From the sequence record SRR31156797_360: a stretch of DNA of 28,642 nucleotides; one strand, written 5' to 3'. Of this stretch, positions 7,322 through 23,730 are shown one piece after another (position 1 is the first letter of the stretch; each line of letters starts with the position of its first letter). Both the position numbers and the translations under genes were made by a program. The notes beneath the pieces are model-generated. The model saw only the letters and a list, made by a program, of their open reading frames with translations. It made no database searches and was not told the DNA's origin.

Positions 7322-8326
7322 ATGAACAGTGCATTTATGAGTGATAACACCGCTCCTGTGGATGAAAGAATTTTACAGGCTATCTCGAAAGCTAATGTCG
7401 GTTTTGCAAAATCGTACGGTTATGATGACCACACTGTTAAGGCTGAAGTGCTTATCCGTAAAGAATTCGGTTCTGGTGCTGTTTTCTTTCCAGTGCTAAC
7501 TGGAACTGGTGCAAATGTTATTTCACTTGCCTCTATTTTATCTCCGTTTCAGTCAGTGATTTGTGCTGAGACAGCGCATATTAATATTGATGAATGCGGA
7601 GCACCTGAAAGATTTTTGGGCAGTAAGCTGGTCTCTCTGAGGACAGAGCAGGGGAAGCTGAAACCTTCTGACATCAAGCCGCTTTTACACGGTAAGGGAT
7701 TTGAACATCACAGCCAGCCACGGGTTATATCTATCTCTCAGGTAACAGAAACCGGTGTTGCATATACTAAGGAAGAAGTTAAGTCTTTATCAGATTTTGC
7801 AAAGGCTAACGATCTGCTCCTTCACATAGACGGCTCAAGGCTCGTGAATGCTGCCGCTTATTTAGGCTGTTCAATGGGTGAAGCGGTGAAGGGAGCGGAT
7901 GTGATATCCTTCGGAGGGACTAAGAACGGGCTTATGCTCGGGGAAGCGGTGATATTTCTCAATCCTGCTCTGGCTGAAAACTGTAAATATTTCCGCAAAC
8001 AGGCTATGCAGCTCTTTTCAAAGATGAGATACATCTCTGCACAATATATCCCTTATCTTGAAAGCGGAATATGGCTTGAGAACGCATCTCACGCTAATAG
8101 GATGGCGAAAAAACTTTCAGATGGCTTTAAAAGCTCTGGCTATAAATTTGAGTACCCGGTGAATAGCAACGCAGTTTTTGTATATCTTCCGAAAGAGTTG
8201 ATTGAAAAGCTTTCTGAGCAGTTCGGTTTTTACGTCTGGGACGAAGAGACTAATCTCTGCCGTTTTATGTGCTCATTTGCAACAACAGAAGAGGATGTTG
8301 ATTCTCTTTTAGGGAAAGTTAGTTAA
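7322..8326 (+). CDS. ltaE: Low-specificity L-threonine aldolase (PLP-dependent)
   Basis: SDN, TGTGAN, AHINIDECGAPE, HIDGSR, FGGTKNG (PLP lysine); GAGGTG RBS. Confidence 0.9.
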   Translation: MNSAFMSDNTAPVDERILQAISKANVGFAKSYGYDDHTVKAEVLIRKEFGSGAVFFPVLTGTGANVISLASILSPFQSVICAETAHINIDECGAPERFLGSKLVSLRTEQGKLKPSDIKPLLHGKGFEHHSQPRVISISQVTETGVAYTKEEVKSLSDFAKANDLLLHIDGSRLVNAAAYLGCSMGEAVKGADVISFGGTKNGLMLGEAVIFLNPALAENCKYFRKQAMQLFSKMRYISAQYIPYLESGIWLENASHANRMAKKLSDGFKSSGYKFEYPVNSNAVFVYLPKELIEKLSEQFGFYVWDEETNLCRFMCSFATTEEDVDSLLGKVS

Positions 8327-8551
8327 CAAGTTAATATTTAATGAAGGATATTGTTCATTTTGAGTGCGTCTTAGTTAAAGCTCACTTTACAATTTGCTTT
8401 CACTGTATAACTAATTGTTGTTTTTAAGGCATTTTTGTATGCTAAATCAAAAAAAACACCTATAATATATAGGGAAAGTTAACTTTTAGCTTTATTTTTT
8501 TATGACTTTTTCTTAAAATTTAATCTACGTTTGAAAAATGGGAGTCGTACT

Positions 8552-8710
8552 ATGTCAGAGAAAGAAGAGACCACCATGGTTGAGGTGAAATGCCCGCTTT
8601 GCGATCATACTGAGATAATTTACGTCCCGAAAGAAGAAGTTCCCAAATGCCCTGTGCATAATGTGACTATGAATATTCACGAGGTGCTTGAGGAAGGGAA
8701 ATCTTACTGA
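8552..8710 (+). CDS. 52-aa Zn-ribbon-like microprotein (CPLC...CPVH), below the ORF-track length cutoff
   Basis: Translates as MSEKEETTMVEVKCPLCDHTEIIYVPKEEVPKCPVHNVTMNIHEVLEEGKSY*; GGAG RBS upstream; ends 30 bp before the ABC binding protein. Confidence 0.8.
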   Translation: MSEKEETTMVEVKCPLCDHTEIIYVPKEEVPKCPVHNVTMNIHEVLEEGKSY

Positions 8711-8740
8711 TGGAATTCTTGCTAAGGAGGCAATTATAAT

Positions 8741-9553
8741 ATGAAGAAACTTGTTATTACTCTACTTGTGTTTGCTATGGCTGCTATGACAGCATTCGCA
8801 AACGACAATTCCCTTTGGGAGAAATCGACTCTTAACAAAATCATCAAAAGAGGTGAGCTTAGAGTTGGTATGGAAGCCGGCTACATGCCTTTCGAACTTA
8901 AAAACAAAAGAGGCGAAATCGTAGGCTTCGACGTTGATATGGCTAAAGAAATGGCTAAAGAGATGGGCGTTAAGCTCACACTCGTGAACACAGCTTGGGA
9001 TGGAATCATCACTTCTCTTCTCACAGATAAGTATGACATCATCATGTCTGGTATGACTATCACACCGAAAAGAAACCTTCAGATCAACTTTGCTAACCCA
9101 TACATCGTTGTTGGTCAGACAGTTCTTATTAAGAAAGAGCTTGCAGGAGAGATTACATCTTACGAGCAGCTTAACAACCCGAAATACACTATCGCTACTA
9201 AGCTCGGTGTAACAGGCGAGTATGCTACTAAGCGCCACATGGGCAAAGCTAAGATTAACCTTTTCGAGACAGAGCAGGAAGCTGCACTTGAAGTTGTAAA
9301 CGGTAAAGCTGACGCTATGGTTTACGACCTTCCGTACAACGCTCTCTACATGGCTCAGAACGGTAAAAAACTTGCTTTCCTTGAGACACCTTTCACATAC
9401 GAGCCGCTCGCTTGGGCTGTTAGAAAAGGTGACCCTGACTTCCTTAACTTCCTCGACAACTTCCTCACACAGATGAAAGGTGACGGAAGATACCAGAAGA
9501 TCTACGACAAATGGTTCGGTTCTGATGACTGGTACAACGATAGAATGAAGTAA
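8741..9553 (+). CDS. Polar amino-acid ABC substrate-binding protein (SBP_bac_3)
   Basis: Signal peptide (AFA cleavage site), YMPFE, GFDVD, WDGIITSL, SGMTITPKR, IYDKWFG; AAGGAGG RBS. Confidence 0.93.
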   Translation: MKKLVITLLVFAMAAMTAFANDNSLWEKSTLNKIIKRGELRVGMEAGYMPFELKNKRGEIVGFDVDMAKEMAKEMGVKLTLVNTAWDGIITSLLTDKYDIIMSGMTITPKRNLQINFANPYIVVGQTVLIKKELAGEITSYEQLNNPKYTIATKLGVTGEYATKRHMGKAKINLFETEQEAALEVVNGKADAMVYDLPYNALYMAQNGKKLAFLETPFTYEPLAWAVRKGDPDFLNFLDNFLTQMKGDGRYQKIYDKWFGSDDWYNDRMK

Positions 9554-9570: not shown

Positions 9571-10518
9571 TTGAGTAAAAAACACAACCTGTTATGGAAC
9601 GTTGCGCTGGTTTTATTTCTTGCTGCTCTTGCGGCAGGCATTTACGTATCCAGCAAGAAGGTCGACTATATATGGCGATGGGAGAGGCTCCCTCAATATG
9701 TTGTCTACAAAGACTTAGGTGAAGTAATTGCGCCTGTAAGCGGTAAGGTGAGCATAGACGGTACTACTGTCACGATCACACCGCCAGGTAGAAGGTCTAC
9801 ACCTGTAACTGTCGAAGTAGAGAAAGGCCTTAAAGTTTCAGACGGTGATACAGTTATTCAGGATGACGTACTGGCTGAACATAAATCCTACAAGATGGGC
9901 CCATTACTAATGGGCCTCCTTGTTACCCTTGAGATATCTATATACTCAATCTTCTTTGCTATTTTGCTAGGTATTTTGACAGGACTTGCCAGAATATCGA
10001 AGAATCCGTTTTTTAGAAAGTTAGCAATATTTTATATTGAGATAATCAGAGGAACGCCTCTGCTTGTTCAGATATTTATATTTTACTTTTTTATAGGAAC
10101 TGTTTTCAATCTAGATAGAATGACTGCCGGTGTTATGGCTCTTGCTGTATTTACCGGAGCCTATATCGCAGAGATAGTTCGTGCAGGTATCCAGTCTATC
10201 CACAAAGGACAGATGGAAGCGGCACGAAGCCTCGGTATGAGTTACCCAAAAGCGATGATCCTTGTGGTTCTGCCACAGGCTTTCCGCAGGACATTACCGC
10301 CTATGGCTGGTCAGTTTATCTCTCTTATCAAAGATTCCTCACTGGTATCTGTTATATCAATCACAGACCTTACCAAAGCTGGTCGAGAAGTTGTCGCTAC
10401 GACATTCAGCCCGTTTGAAGTATGGTTCACAGTTGCAGCTCTTTATCTTGTCCTCACATCTGCGCTCTCGTATTTAGTGCAGAGATTGGAGAAGAAAATG
10501 GCTCAGCAGGACAGGTAA
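9571..10518 (+). CDS. Polar amino-acid ABC permease (HisM/GlnP type) with an inserted soluble domain
   Basis: [38 protein letters not shown] start; about 60-aa beta-rich insert after the first TM helix. Confidence 0.92.
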
Positions 10519-10528
10519 GGAGGCTGAA

Positions 10529-11254
10529 ATGATAAAAGCGAAAAATGTTGAAAAGATATACCCGAATGGTGTGCACGCCCTCAAAGGTGTTTCACTGGAG
10601 GTTGCGCAGAAAGAGGTGCTTGTTATTATCGGACCGTCAGGTTCAGGTAAGTCAACGATACTTCGATCGCTCAATCTTCTCGAGGAGATACAGGGCGGAG
10701 AGATAACTATTGAAGATGTCTCTCTCACATCAAAAAAAGCAAATATAAATAAGATCAGAGCAGAAGTTGGAATGGTTTTTCAGTCGTTCAACCTCTTCCC
10801 TCATAAAACTGTCCTTGAAAATATAACTATGGCGCCTGTTCATGTTAAAAGGATGAAGAAGGCGCAGGCAGAAGAGGTAGCCCTTGACCTGCTTAATAAA
10901 GTGGGACTTTCTGATAAACGTGATTCATTCCCTAGTCAGCTTTCCGGTGGTCAGCAGCAGAGGGTTGCTATCGCACGTGCTCTTGCTATGAACCCGAAAG
11001 TGATGCTCTTTGACGAGCCGACATCAGCGCTAGACCCTGAGATGATCGGTGAAGTGCTTGATGTTATGAAGACTCTCGCTGGTGAAGGTATGACAATGGT
11101 TGTTGTTACCCACGAGATGGGCTTTGCCAGAGAAGTAGCAGACAGGATTATATTCATGGATGAAGGGATAATAGTTGAGGAGAATACTCCTGAGGAGATT
11201 TATAAAAATCCTCAGAGTGACAGACTCAAGCTATTCCTCAGCCAAATCCTCTGA
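10529..11254 (+). CDS. Polar amino-acid ABC ATPase (GlnQ type)
   Basis: [34 protein letters not shown]. Confidence 0.95.
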
Positions 11255-11346: not shown

Positions 11347-11372
11347 AAGGGAACCGAAAGGTTCCCTTTTTT
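11347..11372 (+). terminator. Intrinsic terminator of the amino-acid ABC operon
   Basis: AAGGGAACC-GAAA-GGTTCCCTT followed by TTTT. Confidence 0.85.
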
Positions 11373-12813: not shown

Positions 12814-13410
12814 TTAAGCGTAGAGTGGTATGATAATAGGAACGAGTGTAGATAGGGTGACGCCGTTTATGAAGCCTATTATGGCAGCACGTTTTCCGCA
12901 ATATTTTTCAATGACAGGGAGGGTTACATCCATGGTTGTTGCGCCACCTGTGGCGATAGGAGCATAGGGGCCTATAAACTTAACCAGAAATGGGATTGTG
13001 ACAAGTGCGATGCTCTCTCTGAAAACATTTGATAGAAAAGCGATTGCACCTATATCGCTCCCTTTCATATCGGCAAGTAATATAGCAGACAAAGAGTGCC
13101 ACCCGAAGCCCGAAGCGATAGCCATACCTTCGTTAGCAGTAAGGTTTGTGATGAGTGATACTACATATCCGCCTGCGATGGTCCCTATGATAGTTCCGAC
13201 AGGTATGAGCAGGGCGTATCTGTCAGCCTTTATGAGTGTTTTTAGCGACTCTCTGTTATTTCCAATGTCAAAGCCTATTAAAAATAACAGTATTATAAGA
13301 GAGATATCAGTTATTCTCAGACAGCTTTCGATTAGCTGCTCATTGAGTATGTGAGTGTATGAGACTGTTGTGCCTAATATTACAGCCGTCAGCATAGCGA
13401 TGATAATCAT
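12814..13410 (-). CDS. LysO/YbjE (DUF340) exporter, large subunit
   Basis: SGFGWHSLS, LSNVFRE, GGATTMDVTLP. Confidence 0.85.
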   Translation of the reverse strand: MIIIAMLTAVILGTTVSYTHILNEQLIESCLRITDISLIILLFLIGFDIGNNRESLKTLIKADRYALLIPVGTIIGTIAGGYVVSLITNLTANEGMAIASGFGWHSLSAILLADMKGSDIGAIAFLSNVFRESIALVTIPFLVKFIGPYAPIATGGATTMDVTLPVIEKYCGKRAAIIGFINGVTLSTLVPIIIPLYA

Positions 13411-13679
13411 ACTTTCTTCTCTCCGAAAAGCTTAATCAGAGCTAAGACTGCGATGATGCTGAAAAGTATGACAGTAATGCTCATTATAGCTGAGATTATG
13501 CCGAAGTCAGAGAGTTTAGCCAGCAGCTTCGGGTCACGTCCGAGATTTACTCCCATGAAGAATAGCAAACCGAGTAGTGAAACGTTAAAAATGATTGATT
13601 TGATCTTGCCCATAAATCCGCTGGGGAGGAAGAATCCGACGATAACTCCAGCTGCGAGGGCTAAAACGTAATTAAGCAT
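13407..13679 (-). CDS. LysO-family small subunit (split N-terminal part)
   Basis: Three hydrophobic helices, LLFFMGVNLG motif; overlaps both neighbours. ATG at 13679 preferred over the GTG at 13685. Confidence 0.75.
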   Translation of the reverse strand: MLNYVLALAAGVIVGFFLPSGFMGKIKSIIFNVSLLGLLFFMGVNLGRDPKLLAKLSDFGIISAIMSITVILFSIIAVLALIKLFGEKKV

Positions 13680-14217
13680 TGTCACCCATCGCAGATGTTA
13701 TCTGCCTGAGTGTGAGTATGCTGTGTATGTCAGAATTATCCATCTTGTCTATGATTACAGCACAGCCAACAAGCTCTGCGCCCGCTTCTTCGACAATGTT
13801 TCTGATGGATTTATATGTATTCCCTTTTGCATAGAAGTCGTCAACGAAGAGAACCTTGTCCCCTTTTCCTAAAACCTCTTTCGATACATAAAGGGTGGTG
13901 TGTTCGTTTTTGGTGAAAGAATAGCTTTCAGCGGAGAAATATCCCTTCATTGTGATAGGTTTCTTCTTTTTAGCGTAGATATAATCAACATTCATACTGA
14001 ATGCTGTCGATTGTGCAGGTGGTATACCGCTCGCTTCAACCGTGAGTATCTTATCTATTTTAACGTCAGCAAACTTGTCAGCTATATCTTCGCCGATAGC
14101 CTTCATGGTCGCAGTGTCCACCATATGGTTCATCACACGGTCAACTTTAACCACCTCACCATTCACCTCGCCGTTAGCTTTGATCATATCAAGTAGCATC
14201 TGCTGAGCTTTTCTCAC
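13672..14217 (-). CDS. xpt: Xanthine phosphoribosyltransferase
   Basis: VKVDRVMNHMVD, TVEASGI, YAKKK, YSFTK, VDDFYAKG PRPP loop. Confidence 0.85.
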   Translation of the reverse strand: MRKAQQMLLDMIKANGEVNGEVVKVDRVMNHMVDTATMKAIGEDIADKFADVKIDKILTVEASGIPPAQSTAFSMNVDYIYAKKKKPITMKGYFSAESYSFTKNEHTTLYVSKEVLGKGDKVLFVDDFYAKGNTYKSIRNIVEEAGAELVGCAVIIDKMDNSDIHSILTLRQITSAMGDNA

Positions 14218-19557: not shown

Positions 19558-21048
19558 TCAAAAATTTTCTGGTATTTTTACAATCAGACTTTCGACTTCT
19601 CTGTCGCTAAGTTCAATTATCTGGTTGTTACAAATGACTTCGAAGCCTTCGTCGCCATGAGTGACACGTATCATGTCGCCTGTTTTAATACCTTTGTCTG
19701 TTTTGATGGAGACAACCTGTACGTCACTACCCGAAAATCCGAACATAGAGGTAAGGCAGAAGGAGCCGTCTGTGTATATCTCAGGTATTTTTGCTCCGTG
19801 AGGGTCTGTGGTCGGTGACCCCATCTGTTCGTAAATGTGCTGGATAGCCGCATCGTCGTTATAATGTTCGAGTACGTGTGCTTTTTCGTGAAGTTTCTCT
19901 TCTGGCACGCCCATATAGTGGAGGTAAGTTTCCCACACCCTGTGCGCTTTCTTCAGCCTGAGGGCTTCGGTTACACCTTTTTCACTAAGGGTGAGCACTT
20001 CACCACTCACAGTTATCATGCCGTCACCGGAGAGCTGGTTAAGAGCATTTTTGAGCTGTTTTTTACTTGTTTCAATATATTGCATCATGGTGCTGATAGA
20101 TATTTTACCCTCAGATTTATAAATACTTCCGATTATGTCCTCTGCTAGCTGTTGAGGCACTGCGTTCTTCTTACGCATAACGTCAGCAAGCATTCCGTAC
20201 TTAGGTGCGAGCATAAGCACAACTAGAAACTGTGCAGTGGAGAATAGCATTATCGCTCCGCCGCCTGATGAGTTCATCCAGAGAGAGAGGTAAAGCCCGC
20301 CTAGGATACTTGTGAAGCCGAAAACAGCCGCAAGCCCCATCATCTTTTCAAGCCTGTCAGTGAGGAGGTAAGCTGTAGCCGCAGGGGTTATTAGCAGTCC
20401 TACAACGAGGATAACACCCACCATGCTCACAGCAGAAACAACTATCAGCGATACGCATCCAGTGAACAAATATTTGAAAAAGAGAACAGGTATGCCTATG
20501 GACGCCGCCATTACAGGGTCGAAGCTTGTAAGCTTAAAATATCTGAAAAATAGAATCAGCACAGATAAAACTGATGCGGAAACTATTGATGACACAATCA
20601 TATCTGTATCTGAGATGCCTAGGATATCCCCCATTATGAAGTGAACTATGTCTATGTGGATGTATTTGCTGAAGACTGATACGAGTACAACACCAGCGGC
20701 AAATATACCTGTGTACATGATACCGATGGAGGTGTCCTCTTTTATGCGGGACACTTTCGCAACAAAGCCTATCATGAAAACTGTCAGCATCGCCGCAATG
20801 AGCGAACCGATAAGCATGGCTCCTGCCGCCGCCTCTATGCCGAAGAGAACTTTCATAAAAAGATATCCAGCTCCGACACCAGCTATCATAGCGTGGGAGA
20901 GTGCATCACCGAGGAACGCCATTCGCTGGAGGATGACAAGGCATCCGGCAACTGCGCAGACAACAGCAACAATACTTCCGCCTATGAGAGCTTTCAGAAA
21001 GTAAGCCTTAGTGAGCGGTTCTATTAAAAATGTAAAAAGTACATCCAT
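19558..21048 (-). CDS. Mn/Fe/Zn ABC permease fused to a C-terminal DtxR/MntR-like domain
   Basis: ABC-3 motifs GDALSHA, EDTSIG, SFDP, ITPAATA; then AEDII, HRVWETYL, HEKAHVLEH, DPHGAKIP. Confidence 0.9.
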   Translation of the reverse strand: MDVLFTFLIEPLTKAYFLKALIGGSIVAVVCAVAGCLVILQRMAFLGDALSHAMIAGVGAGYLFMKVLFGIEAAAGAMLIGSLIAAMLTVFMIGFVAKVSRIKEDTSIGIMYTGIFAAGVVLVSVFSKYIHIDIVHFIMGDILGISDTDMIVSSIVSASVLSVLILFFRYFKLTSFDPVMAASIGIPVLFFKYLFTGCVSLIVVSAVSMVGVILVVGLLITPAATAYLLTDRLEKMMGLAAVFGFTSILGGLYLSLWMNSSGGGAIMLFSTAQFLVVLMLAPKYGMLADVMRKKNAVPQQLAEDIIGSIYKSEGKISISTMMQYIETSKKQLKNALNQLSGDGMITVSGEVLTLSEKGVTEALRLKKAHRVWETYLHYMGVPEEKLHEKAHVLEHYNDDAAIQHIYEQMGSPTTDPHGAKIPEIYTDGSFCLTSMFGFSGSDVQVVSIKTDKGIKTGDMIRVTHGDEGFEVICNNQIIELSDREVESLIVKIPENF

Positions 21049-21052
21049 ATTA

Positions 21053-21802
21053 TCAATCCTTTATCAGGTCTGTGAAGACTTTAAGTTTGCCTTCGTAAAC
21101 TTCTGTAAGCAGATCCTGTCTGAATACCAGTGAAGGTGGTCCTGCTGCGTAAAGCCTCTGTTTAACGAGAAGCAGTTTATCAAAATATTCCGATGCTGTC
21201 GCCAGATCGTGGTGAACAACCACAAGGGTTATGCCAGCCTTTTTCGCTTCTGAAAGAACATCGAGTATGGCATTCTCAGTTGCGGCATCTACTCCGGCAA
21301 ATGGTTCGTCCAGAAGGAGAATCTTTGCACCCTGAGCAAGAGCCCTCGCCATGAAAACCCGCTGTTGCTGACCTCCGGAAAGCTGACCTATCTGTCTGTC
21401 ACGAAAGTCTGACATGCGTACCATCTCAAGGCAGTTATCGACGATCTCACGATCCTCTTTTGTTTCATTCTGCCACCATTTAAGGTGACCGTAACGACCC
21501 ATCATAGCGACGTCATGAACTGTGACAGGATAGTCCCAGTCTACAGTTCCCCTTTGAGGGACGTAGGCTACAAGTCCTCTGGTCTGTTCAACCGGCTTAC
21601 CGAAAATTCGTACCTCGCCGATATCACGTTTAACAAAGCCGAGGATAGCTTTCATCAGAGTGGATTTACCAGCTCCGTTAGGACCTATTATCCCAACAAG
21701 CTCGCCAGTATTTATAAAGAAACTAACATCCAGCAGAGCCGGCTTCGGACCGTAGCTTACTGTGAGGTTTCGTACCTGAATTGCGTAATCATCAATGGTC
21801 AT
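21053..21802 (-). CDS. Metal ABC ATPase (TroB/MntB type)
   Basis: [35 protein letters not shown]. Confidence 0.93.
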   Translation of the reverse strand: MTIDDYAIQVRNLTVSYGPKPALLDVSFFINTGELVGIIGPNGAGKSTLMKAILGFVKRDIGEVRIFGKPVEQTRGLVAYVPQRGTVDWDYPVTVHDVAMMGRYGHLKWWQNETKEDREIVDNCLEMVRMSDFRDRQIGQLSGGQQQRVFMARALAQGAKILLLDEPFAGVDAATENAILDVLSEAKKAGITLVVVHHDLATASEYFDKLLLVKQRLYAAGPPSLVFRQDLLTEVYEGKLKVFTDLIKD

Positions 21803-22268
21803 TGTGTTCCCCCTCTGTTTCGAGAGTGAATTTATGTGCGGCGTTCACGGATTCCCCTGCGGAAAACCAGTATGTCGCTTCGTTTAATGGGTTATTTTCA
21901 ATAAATACAACAATACGCACAGCCTGACTGATAGTGTTGTCTGTAGGATTCCCTTTAACAAAGATCTCGTGCAGACCGTCTGTTAATTCGTAAGTTTCTG
22001 TTGTAAGAGGGACTCTGTCTTTTATACCGCTTTCAGTCTGATAAATAGTTTCGCCGTCTAGGATTATCTCAAAAGCACCAGTCGCCTCGCCGAAAGAGAA
22101 AGGATCTTTCTCAGTGGAGAAGGTTGTTGTCACCTCTATTGTGGTCTGGTGAGTGCTCTGCTTGTCTGCGGTACTCTCTATGTAGTTTTCGTTCGAGCGG
22201 ACGTTAAACATTATTGTTACAAGTGAAAGTATGACAACCCATACCGCTCCGGTTATTATGAATTTCAC
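21792..22268 (-). CDS. Hypothetical membrane-anchored protein inside the metal ABC operon
   Basis: N-terminal hydrophobic helix, acidic beta-rich body; overlaps both flanking genes (GTGA overlap upstream). Confidence 0.75.
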   Translation of the reverse strand: MKFIITGAVWVVILSLVTIMFNVRSNENYIESTADKQSTHQTTIEVTTTFSTEKDPFSFGEATGAFEIILDGETIYQTESGIKDRVPLTTETYELTDGLHEIFVKGNPTDNTISQAVRIVVFIENNPLNEATYWFSAGESVNAAHKFTLETEGEHNDH

Positions 22269-23152
22269 TTAAGCCCCGCCACTATCTTAACAACGTTTTC
22301 GCGCATCATGCCGATGTATGTTTCAGCAGTTGAGCCAAGGTCACCCATAGAATCAGAATAGAGCTCACCGCCAATGGCTACGCCGGCATCTTTTGCTATC
22401 TCTCTGATGAGTTTAGGGTTTATTGTGGTTTCGAAAAATATAGCTTTTACACCCATGCTTTTGATTGAGTTAACAACCGCCTCTCGCCGCTTAGGTGTAA
22501 CACCGCCGCCAACTTCGCTGCCGGTAGACCAGCCTATAGGCGCTGTGTTTATGAATCCGTACTCTTTTGCAAAGTATTGAAAAGCATCGTGATTGCTCAC
22601 CAAAACCCTCTGTTTAGGCGGGATAACTGAGACCTCTGCTCTTATCCATCCGTCGAGAGCTTTGAGCTGTGACATGAAGAGCTTTGCCCGTGCTGCATAT
22701 CTGTCTTTATTGGATATATCTAACTTTATGAATGCGTTAGCTATGTTTGTCATATATGCTGCGGCATTCCTCGGGGTGAACCAAGCATGAGGGTCGTTAA
22801 CTTTTGCACCGTCCTTCTCCATGATGAGAGGTTTTATACCTTTGGTAGCAGTTACCAGAGGTTTACCAGCATCTTTTGCCAAAGTTTTCATCCAGTTTTT
22901 ACCCTCGAGGTGCATCCCGTTTTCAATCACGAGGTCTGCCTTTTGGACAAGTTCGATATCTTTCGGAACCGGCTGATAAGTGTGCGGATCCTGCCCCGGA
23001 GCTAGTATACTGACGATCTTGAGGTCGTCACCTGCTAGGTTATATGCAAAGTCGTAAATCTGCGTGGTTGATACTACAACGAGTTTTTCTGCGTGAACAA
23101 ATGCAACGTTTAAAAATACTAATAGCATTAATAGAAATTTCTTATTGACCAT
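22265..23152 (-). CDS. Metal ABC substrate-binding protein (TroA/MntA type)
   Basis: Signal peptide; ligand motifs DPHTY, DPHAW, NHDAF, YSDS (His-His-His-Asp). Confidence 0.93.
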   Translation of the reverse strand: MVNKKFLLMLLVFLNVAFVHAEKLVVVSTTQIYDFAYNLAGDDLKIVSILAPGQDPHTYQPVPKDIELVQKADLVIENGMHLEGKNWMKTLAKDAGKPLVTATKGIKPLIMEKDGAKVNDPHAWFTPRNAAAYMTNIANAFIKLDISNKDRYAARAKLFMSQLKALDGWIRAEVSVIPPKQRVLVSNHDAFQYFAKEYGFINTAPIGWSTGSEVGGGVTPKRREAVVNSIKSMGVKAIFFETTINPKLIREIAKDAGVAIGGELYSDSMGDLGSTAETYIGMMRENVVKIVAGLK

Positions 23153-23247: not shown

Positions 23248-23328
23248 GACTTAAAAAGTCCCGTGGAAATAAAATACAAGAAATCCTCGGGGTGAAGTTC
23301 ATTCGCTGAGCATGTGAGGGAGTATATT

Positions 23329-23730
23329 ATGTACGACAAAGTATTGAGAGAGAAAGATCTTAAAGTGACTCCTCAGAGGATTTTTATCCTTGAAGAAATC
23401 AAAAGAATGGGACACGCTAGTGTCGAAGATCTGCACGACAAGGTTAAAGACTTTTACTCTTCTGTCAGCCTTGCGACAATCTACAAGAATATTCATCTTC
23501 TTGTGGACGAGGATATACTCACAGAGGTTCCGGTACACGGCAGAAAGCCTGTTTACGAAATCAATACAGGCGACCATGTACATGTAACATGCCCTGTTTG
23601 CGGTTTTGTTGAGGATCTGATGAATGTCGATACCGCACCTTTTATAAAAGAAGCGACAGACCAGACCGGAAGAAAGTATGATCGCATTGCAGTGATGCTT
23701 CAGGCACCTTGCAACAAATGTAACAACTAG
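23329..23730 (+). CDS. Fur-family regulator, PerR-like
   Basis: KVTPQR, GHASVE, SLATIYKN, HVHVTCPVCG and terminal CNKC; ATG at 23329 behind GAGGGAG. Confidence 0.9.
   Translation: MYDKVLREKDLKVTPQRIFILEEIKRMGHASVEDLHDKVKDFYSSVSLATIYKNIHLLVDEDILTEVPVHGRKPVYEINTGDHVHVTCPVCGFVEDLMNVDTAPFIKEATDQTGRKYDRIAVMLQAPCNKCNN

Follow-up and report, generated by a model that had tools for sequence, protein, structure and literature searches.

A putative zinc-ribbon microprotein encoded at the head of a probable lysine importer operon

Genes and signals at the locus

The window analysed in this work is the whole stretch of 28,642 nt taken from sequence record SRR31156797_360. It encodes on the plus strand, at 8552-8710, a protein of 52 amino acids (aa) that carries a putative zinc (Zn) ribbon and is called the microprotein here. 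The microprotein gene stands directly upstream of three genes for an ATP-binding cassette (ABC) importer of amino acids, and the findings presented below suggest that its product may be a dedicated partner of that importer.

The open reading frame (ORF) starts at ATG 8552 and ends with the TGA stop codon at 8708-8710, and its product is MSEKEETTMVEVKCPLCDHTEIIYVPKEEVPKCPVHNVTMNIHEVLEEGKSY. The ATG is preceded by a Shine-Dalgarno (SD) sequence, GGGAG (8540-8544, +), with a spacing of 7 nt. The product has two metal knuckles (C14-P-L-C17 and C33-P-V-H36) that are 15 residues apart, which gives the pattern CPLC-x15-CPVH, and it ends with the tail EEGKSY, in which E-G-K-S-Y is conserved. An earlier reading of the window, made from the letters alone and referred to here as the original prediction, had named the ribosome-binding site, the clean reading frame, the knuckle pattern and the tail, and all of them are present exactly as it described. 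Two other candidates at this position were rejected. The alternative start TTG 8531 would give 59 aa, and both the homologue alignment and the SD sequence favour ATG 8552. The antisense ORF at 8555-8680 (41 aa) was treated as a shadow of the microprotein coding frame.

The gap between the microprotein stop codon and the start of the solute-binding protein (SBP) gene at 8741 is 30 nt, and the SBP gene has its own AAGGAGG at 8724-8730. The window scan lists no terminator-like site on the plus strand between 8552 and 8741. The first strong site on that strand is a terminator-like hairpin at 11347-11368, with a 9 bp stem (5 GC) followed by a T run, which lies 3' of the ATPase gene and closes the four-gene unit. 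Both the spacing and the uninterrupted arrangement are those given by the original prediction. Upstream of the microprotein gene, a putative -10 hexamer TATAAT at 8461-8466 (+) is followed by the conserved block ATATAGGGAAAGTTAAC. The block TATAATATATAGGGAAAGTTAAC is kept in three of the four aligned upstream regions, which are those of the window and of two homologous loci (L001 and L013). The conserved TATAAT was read as the -10 box of the operon promoter, which would place the microprotein first on the transcript; the hexamer is not listed by the promoter consensus scan of the window, because its -35 element is poor. An exact 12-nt direct repeat, TAGGGAAAGTTA, occurs at 8310-8321 and 8470-8481 (+). 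The first copy covers the last codons of the upstream lyase gene and the second lies just 3' of the TATAAT, in the block conserved in L001 and L013. This repeat may be an operator or may have arisen by chance. The search of both strands of 8250-8800 against Rfam at E<=1 gave no matches, and hence no known riboswitch or leader.

The three downstream genes hold the set of domains that defines a polar amino-acid ABC importer (SBP_bac_3, BPD_transp_1 and ABC_tran), with the terminator after the ATPase gene. The first of them, at 8741-9553 (+), encodes a periplasmic SBP of the SBP_bac_3 family (Pfam E 3.4e-43) with a signal peptide. The second, at 9571-10518 (+), encodes a permease of 315 aa in which BPD_transp_1 covers only residues 130-311 (Pfam E 7.4e-23) and is preceded by an N-terminal extension. 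The third, at 10529-11254 (+), encodes an ATPase of 241 aa (ABC_tran, Pfam E 1.8e-38) that has no C-terminal regulatory domain. The closest solved relative of the SBP is 3K4U, which is Ws0279 of Wolinella succinogenes (E 1.5e-90, 306 bits). Ws0279 is described in a preprint as binding lysine by differential scanning fluorimetry (bioRxiv 10.1101/157495). From this homology, import of lysine or related cationic amino acids is suggested, and the cassette probably represents a type I polar amino-acid ABC importer for such substrates.

On the 5' side of the cassette, the window carries a Beta_elim_lyase gene (+) and a Xan_ur_permease gene (-). Metagenome-assembled genomes (MAGs) titled Deferribacterales and Denitrovibrio are the nearest relatives of the window, whose uracil-permease-like protein shares 91% identity with the one in L001. 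A two-gene lysine exporter of the LysO family is located at 12817-13685 (-), about 1.5 kb from the probable lysine importer and on the opposite strand. It consists of a Lys_export gene (PF03956, E 6.5e-63) and an adjoining membrane ORF of 92 aa. Importer and exporter are separated by a Peptidase_C11-like gene and a lone response-regulator gene.

The homologue family and its coupling to one importer subfamily

Homologues of the microprotein were identified in several ways. The word-indexed protein search returned 11 small proteins at 69-82% identity; names are given for two of the 11, and both are 'hypothetical protein'. The degenerate-pattern scan, which used one genome per species, returned 41 loci (numbered L001 onwards) with 40 complete copies. 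The titles of these loci include Deferribacterales, Deferribacteraceae, Denitrovibrio, Seleniivibrio, Desulfobacterales, Desulfobacteraceae, Desulfovibrionaceae, Desulfonema, Desulfatibacillum, 'Desulfurellales', Thermodesulfobacteriota, 'Pseudomonadota' and unclassified bacteria. The exhaustive profile search of 1.84 billion representatives returned 63 matches at E<=1e-3, of which 45 reached E<=1e-10. Sixty of the 63 are 33-113 aa long, and the remaining three, which are weak (E >= 1e-6), are 229-869 aa long. The search for longer forms gave nine matches of 107-155 aa, judged by eye to be upstream-extended or read-through calls plus one truncated chimera-like sequence. No true domain fusion was seen among these nine, which is weak evidence.

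None of the Pfam and NCBIfam models reaches its cut-off on the microprotein family. The S27e model PF01667 scores 15.6 bits on the window protein against a cut-off of 24.5, and the NCBIfam model NF001629 scores 13.3 against 70. S27e is matched weakly by 23 of the 44 family members, with a best E of 9.2e-5. The ECs_2282_CxxC model (NF047912) scores at best 27.1 bits against a cut-off of 37 among the six members tested, and it has no match on the window protein at E<=0.1. The nearest clusters in the ESM Atlas are unnamed hypothetical proteins of 47-51 aa (0.93-0.94) and archaeal DUF7836 and DUF7560 (0.91-0.92), which are taken as leads only. By these searches, the microprotein belongs to a small stand-alone family without a name.

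The family behaves as a coding sequence. All 40 complete copies have exactly 42 codons (126 nt) from three codons before the first cysteine to the stop codon, with no insertions or deletions. Among the 39 distinct sequences, the differences at codon positions 1, 2 and 3 number 8090, 5841 and 19016, and the ratio of non-synonymous to synonymous differences (pN/pS) is 0.26 in the coding frame, compared with 1.39 and 1.67 when the two other frames are read. For 34 closer pairs, the ratio of the corresponding substitution rates (dN/dS) has a median of 0.17. Candidate start codons are found 11-19 codons before the first cysteine in the 40 loci, and most of the starts are preceded by a GGAG-type purine-rich stretch (judged by eye and uncounted). 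On these substitution patterns the gene is under purifying selection. The contrary explanation, that the ORF is a chance frame or an annotation artefact without a product, can point to a length of only 52 codons, to an AT-rich setting (GC 0.376 in the 8001-9000 bin) and to the failure to find transcript or peptide evidence. It does not agree with conservation across phyla without insertions or deletions, with the third-position bias, or with the conserved SD sequence and start. The cross-phylum conservation and the codon-position pattern together rule out a chance ORF of 52 codons; such an artefact is hardly credible, and the ORF is almost certainly a real protein-coding gene.

One copy departs from the family pattern. 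At 675-800 of L031 (a MAG titled Proteobacteria) the second knuckle is lost in frame, where IPRWIVELL replaces IPRCPxx...MII, and the downstream ABC genes are intact. This copy is either decaying or an assembly error.

The original prediction had placed the microprotein at the head of an amino-acid ABC operon, and the neighbourhood check upholds this linkage to SBP_bac_3 operons well beyond the window. Using the window proteins as tblastn queries, the SBP, permease and ATPase genes were found directly downstream of the microprotein gene, in that order, in 39 of the 41 loci, with the permease detected in 38 of them. The contig ends inside the operon in some of the 39 linked loci, and that of L021 ends before any permease match. 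The contig of L041 ends inside the microprotein gene. The sequence of L024 equals that of L025 (same MAG, >99% identity over the microprotein gene) until about 25 nt past the stop codon, where an integrase-bearing element begins. Comparison of L024 (6150-7400) with L025 (816-1000) showed that L025 continues into the SBP gene, whereas L024 continues into an ORF that is tyrosine-integrase-like from its translation and into phage-like genes. L024 represents either the insertion of a mobile element between the microprotein and SBP genes or strain heterogeneity or an assembly variant of the L025 locus. The gap between the microprotein and SBP genes is 14-80 nt in most loci. The genes that flank the cassette have nothing in common across 10 diverse loci, so that the conserved unit is the four-gene cassette only.

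The same association was found at the level of whole genomes. The genomes of three phylum-level groups (356 in total, with G numbers as handles) were searched with the microprotein profile and with the permease. In the phylum of G001 (68 genomes), 35 genomes have the microprotein, 35 have the full-length permease (E<=1e-109, residues 1-314) and 35 have both; the two genes are on one contig about 1-2 kb apart in 32 genomes, and G021 has a contig break. In the phylum of G004 (a sample of 251 genomes), the microprotein was found in 19 genomes, with one further partial match at 3e-5, the permease in 22 (E<=1e-92) and both in 19; both are on one contig in 17 genomes, and the contig of G166 is broken inside the permease. 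In the phylum of G005 (37 genomes), the microprotein was found in 24 genomes, the permease in 25 and both in 24, with the two genes on one contig in all 24. Altogether, the orthologous permease is present in 78 of 78 microprotein genomes and the microprotein in 78 of 82 permease genomes, and in 73 of the 78 the permease is on the same contig within about 2.5 kb. One of the permease genomes without a microprotein match, G231, is cut at a contig edge. The microprotein is present as a single copy in the five genomes checked. Genomic coupling to one transporter is a trait of small proteins that modulate transporters, and it was found for the microprotein in all 78 genomes. Pair by pair, sequence distances in the microprotein rise with those in the ATPase (r 0.72) and in the permease (r 0.71), and none of 2000 permutations gave correlations as high; these correlated distances indicate inheritance as a cassette and not co-evolution.

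The permease of the cassette is distinguished by its N-terminal extension of about 105 aa (9571-9900 (+) in the window; alignment columns 1-115), which comprises a transmembrane helix, a nearly invariant motif and a beta-rich domain of about 65 aa. No Pfam match covers the extension. The model of the permease has a predicted local distance difference test (pLDDT) score of 71.5 overall and of 57-63 in the extension; residues 3-30 form a helix, and beta-rich sequence extends as far as residue 109, ahead of the canonical helices. The paralogous permeases of the same genomes in the G001 group match only residues 104-315 or less, and therefore do not have this extension. Three helices lie between the extension and the cytoplasmic EAA loop. 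Given the known topology of type I importer permeases, this would make the extension periplasmic, with about eight N-terminal residues in the cytoplasm. The extension and the microprotein, which has no signal peptide, should then not be in contact. A subgroup (L035, L038 and five genomes of the G004 group) has a shorter, divergent extension, and the microprotein is still present in it. The association of the microprotein is with the transporter subfamily and not necessarily with the extension.

Metal site, fold and proposed role

Residue conservation was determined from the alignment of 44 microprotein sequences. C14, C17, T20, I22, P26, E28, P31, C33, M40, E44, L46, E48, G49 and K50 are invariant in all 44, and conservation is 90% or more at E11, V12, P15, Y24, K27 and P34. 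As fourth ligand, 26 sequences have cysteine, 17 have histidine and one has aspartate. The family therefore keeps the Cys/His pattern, with three invariant cysteines and a fourth ligand of one of these three kinds in 44 of 44 sequences. As far as the alignment goes, the family is basically C4 and the C3H set is a trait of the Deferribacterales-like lineage. The tail reads EGKS[Y/C/T/F] in 39 of the 44, and its last residue is Y, C, T, F or L across the copies.

Cysteine, histidine and aspartate are all accepted Zn ligands. Because the fourth ligand varies among them while the rest of the protein is conserved, a structural Zn site fits better than a rubredoxin-type iron site or a redox centre. 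A rubredoxin-like Fe(Cys)4 site, which was one option of the original prediction, is rejected here since the fourth ligand is not always cysteine (histidine in 17 and aspartate in one of 44). Rubredoxins have a longer knuckle spacing. Rubredoxin is not among the Pfam families listed for the window protein or, as 25 of 45 families, for the family members. The role as a metal or redox sensor that had been offered for the microprotein is without support, and the ligand variation fits structural Zn better.

The other option for the paired knuckles, a Zn ribbon, is borne out by the predicted structure. The AlphaFold2 (AF2) model computed with the family alignment has a pLDDT of 85.5, with strands at residues 8-13, 20-25 and 41-46. 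Two knuckles stand around a beta hairpin and the strands form a three-stranded antiparallel sheet, which is the generic arrangement of a Zn ribbon, and the microprotein is predicted to bind Zn. Model confidence is low only in residues 47-52, which are conserved all the same, and this tail is a candidate docking peptide. Foldseek against the PDB gave nothing at E<=0.001, and the best matches were S27e chains at E 0.056 with TM-scores of 0.5-0.6. A wide fold search returned MCM, aRF1 and ribosomal Zn ribbons with Z at most 4.7, and the sequence profile search of the PDB with the microprotein gave nothing below E 0.057. All these fold matches are generic Zn ribbons and score weakly.

If the gene were a cis-acting leader peptide or upstream ORF, its translation, for example through ribosome pausing at lysine codons, would set the expression of the downstream genes and the peptide would have no role. 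In favour of this, the microprotein gene opens an amino-acid transport operon as a short ORF and precedes the SBP gene by 14-80 nt in most loci; K27 hardly varies and K50 not at all, and the SBP is of the lysine type. A precedent has been proposed in CJsORF19, which precedes a methionine SBP gene (PMC11955535). Selection, however, bears on the protein along its entire length, including the Zn ligands, the prolines and a domain able to fold, and not on a regulatory run of codons. Neither a terminator or antiterminator between the genes nor an Rfam element was found, and the gene is kept in two genomes where it is unlinked (G044 and G045). We regard a leader peptide as very improbable.

A functional tie between the microprotein and this transporter is very likely on the genomic evidence. 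For a direct physical partnership between the microprotein and the transporter, the chances are about even. Similarly poised is the fuller proposal that the gene product is a translated cytoplasmic Zn microprotein, encoded by the first cistron of the cassette, that serves as a dedicated accessory or regulatory partner of the probable importer of lysine or cationic amino acids. A dedicated cytoplasmic partner is proposed because the genomic coupling is specific, the conservation is like that of the transporter (mean pairwise identity of 61% for the microprotein, 57% for the permease and 71% for the ATPase), the fold is a soluble Zn ribbon, the flexible tail is conserved and no other neighbour is conserved. 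Four permease genomes do not have the microprotein, so the partner would be accessory or regulatory and not essential. The microprotein would dock on the cytoplasmic face of the transporter, on the permease loops, the ATPase dimer or both, through the YIPKE-x2-P loop and the E-x-L-x-E-G-K tail. Once docked, it would tune assembly, stability or ATP-driven import, and the Zn would have a structural role in the microprotein. A more specific version, held tentatively and with somewhat less confidence, is that the Zn ribbon is an operon-encoded soluble subunit that clamps the permease-ATPase face through the YIPKE loop and the EGKS[Y/C] tail and gates lysine uptake. The original prediction is partly supported: a regulator or accessory subunit of the transporter is the best-supported explanation, with physical binding as a proposal.

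Several findings weigh against a dedicated partner. The net charge is not conserved, being acidic in the window copy and near neutral in the Desulfobacterota copies, and does not point to any one mode of electrostatic docking. In G044 and G045 the microprotein gene is on another contig, beside genes for a flavodoxin-like protein and a major facilitator superfamily transporter and alaS; the G045 locus was placed by tblastn only. The unlinked copy of G044 (L043, 5239-5457 (-)) has aspartate as its fourth ligand and the tail EGKVL, and it lies upstream of an ORF of 192 aa that is flavodoxin-like by sequence. In G114 (L050/L051) the microprotein stays with the SBP, and the permease and ATPase genes are elsewhere. 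G310 and G278 have the SBP and the extended permease but no microprotein, as judged by a full-sensitivity hidden Markov model search of the upstream 2.6-3 kb and by the genome search. The operon of G349 has no microprotein in the 178 nt left upstream of the SBP gene before the contig end. The co-occurrence counts are not phylogenetically independent. Finally, no RNA sequencing run was found that contains the window stretch, and the translation of the ORF is predicted.

Part of this evidence would suit a trans-acting regulator that does not touch the transporter, acting on a sensor kinase, a transcription factor, the ribosome or the operon mRNA and co-encoded for a matched level. Binding to nucleic acids or to other proteins is common among Zn ribbons this small, and the nearest folds are those of S27e, MCM and aRF1. 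The genes of G044 and G045, unlinked yet kept, show that the microprotein could act in trans, and the transporter runs without it in the four genomes mentioned above. Nevertheless, no regulator gene is conserved beside the cassette in the 10 diverse loci, the window protein is strongly acidic (12 D/E against 5 K/R) and so poor for nucleic-acid binding, and co-occurrence with one ABC subfamily holds in 78 of 78 genomes. A regulator of this kind is rather unlikely, although less so than the leader peptide, and a dedicated partner of the importer is preferred here.

A metal-uptake operon with ZnuA, ABC-3 and ABC_tran genes is also present in the window at 19561-21048 (-), with 21056-23152 (-) and 23314-23727 (+). 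Its ABC-3 permease ORF (496 aa) also bears a C-terminal Fe_dep_repr_C domain (DtxR-type metal-binding and dimerisation), which would make it a fusion of a permease and a repressor domain. A Fur-family gene adjoins this operon.

Comparison with known systems

Amino-acid ABC importers are textbook machines of three or four components, and their post-translational control is known from fused regulatory domains (MetN and ModC) or from global regulators (EIIA-Glc and PII). The canonical HisJQMP and GlnHPQ systems of Escherichia coli are not known to have such a microprotein. Among the articles listed by full-text searches, none was found that describes a comparable protein together with an ABC importer. 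With no Pfam or NCBIfam model and no literature description found, the microprotein is not among the recognised components of polar amino-acid importers. A conserved, dedicated Zn ribbon of about 50 aa that is co-inherited with one importer subfamily in three or more phylum-level groups would add a new kind of component to these machines. If the proposed role is true, it would be the first soluble small protein to serve as a dedicated subunit of such an importer. The gene also illustrates cleanly how a functional microprotein can be recognised from its sequence alone.

The mechanism that the microprotein would most plausibly resemble is that of EIIA-Glc and PII. In the source consulted, EIIA-Glc acts on MalK (inducer exclusion) and PII/GlnB on the ATPases of NrtABCD and UrtABCDE; these regulators are cytoplasmic, bind the nucleotide-binding domains and inhibit uptake (PMC10710835). 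They differ from the microprotein in that they are larger, have unrelated folds and many targets, and are not encoded by the first gene of a transporter operon. A clamp of the microprotein on the permease-ATPase face, if true, would add trans-acting control to a transporter whose ATPase of 241 aa lacks a regulatory domain.

Small proteins that modulate transporters, among them KdpF, are mostly single transmembrane helices. The microprotein is unlike the AcrZ and MgtS kind, since it has no hydrophobic helix and is predicted to be a soluble three-stranded Zn ribbon. AcrZ, SgrT, MgtS, MntS, WatS1 and LucB, which are about 30-60 aa long, are described as each binding a particular transporter, with effects on its activity, specificity or stability, and none of them, as that source presents them, is a Zn ribbon or a part of an amino-acid ABC importer (PMC10710835).

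In its fold, the microprotein is comparable to S27e, ECs_2282_CxxC and the haloarchaeal zinc-finger micro-proteins (HVO_0758), all of which carry on a small beta sheet a pair of CPxC-type knuckles with a spacing of about 15 residues. Haloferax is reported to have 43 micro-proteins with two C(P)XCG motifs (PMC10716476). What sets the microprotein apart from these families is its YIPKE loop, its EGKS[Y/C] tail and its place in an ABC operon.

LysW, an amino-group carrier of lysine metabolism, is a Zn ribbon that measures about 54 aa and ends in an acidic C-terminal tail of the EDWGE type, which is flexible and conserved. It is like the microprotein in size, Zn ribbon, flexible tail and link to lysine, and it differs in the tail motif and in its ATP-grasp neighbour, which is missing here. 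A LysW-like carrier or adaptor would offer the tail, in which E-G-K is invariant, to an enzyme whose substrate is lysine or a related imported compound. This explanation draws on the similar architecture, on the lysine-type SBP and on a tail that is conserved in spite of its low pLDDT. It is very doubtful, as the tail EEGKS[Y/C/T] is unlike the EDWGE end and its last residue varies (Y, C, T, F, L), no LysW model is among the Pfam and NCBIfam matches listed, and no ATP-grasp or other enzyme gene is conserved nearby among the window genes and the 48 flanking ORFs of 10 loci.

The importer itself has the same set of SBP_bac_3, BPD_transp_1 and ABC_tran proteins as the Ws0279-type system (3K4U), which was compared by its SBP, and as HisJQMP and GlnHPQ. 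The microprotein marks a permease variant with an undescribed domain that is predicted to be periplasmic, and its co-occurrence with the extra transmembrane helix and this domain would, if true, define a new transporter architecture. The window operon differs from HisJQMP and GlnHPQ in both respects, having a fourth, leading gene for the microprotein and a permease with an extra N-terminal transmembrane helix and a putative periplasmic domain.

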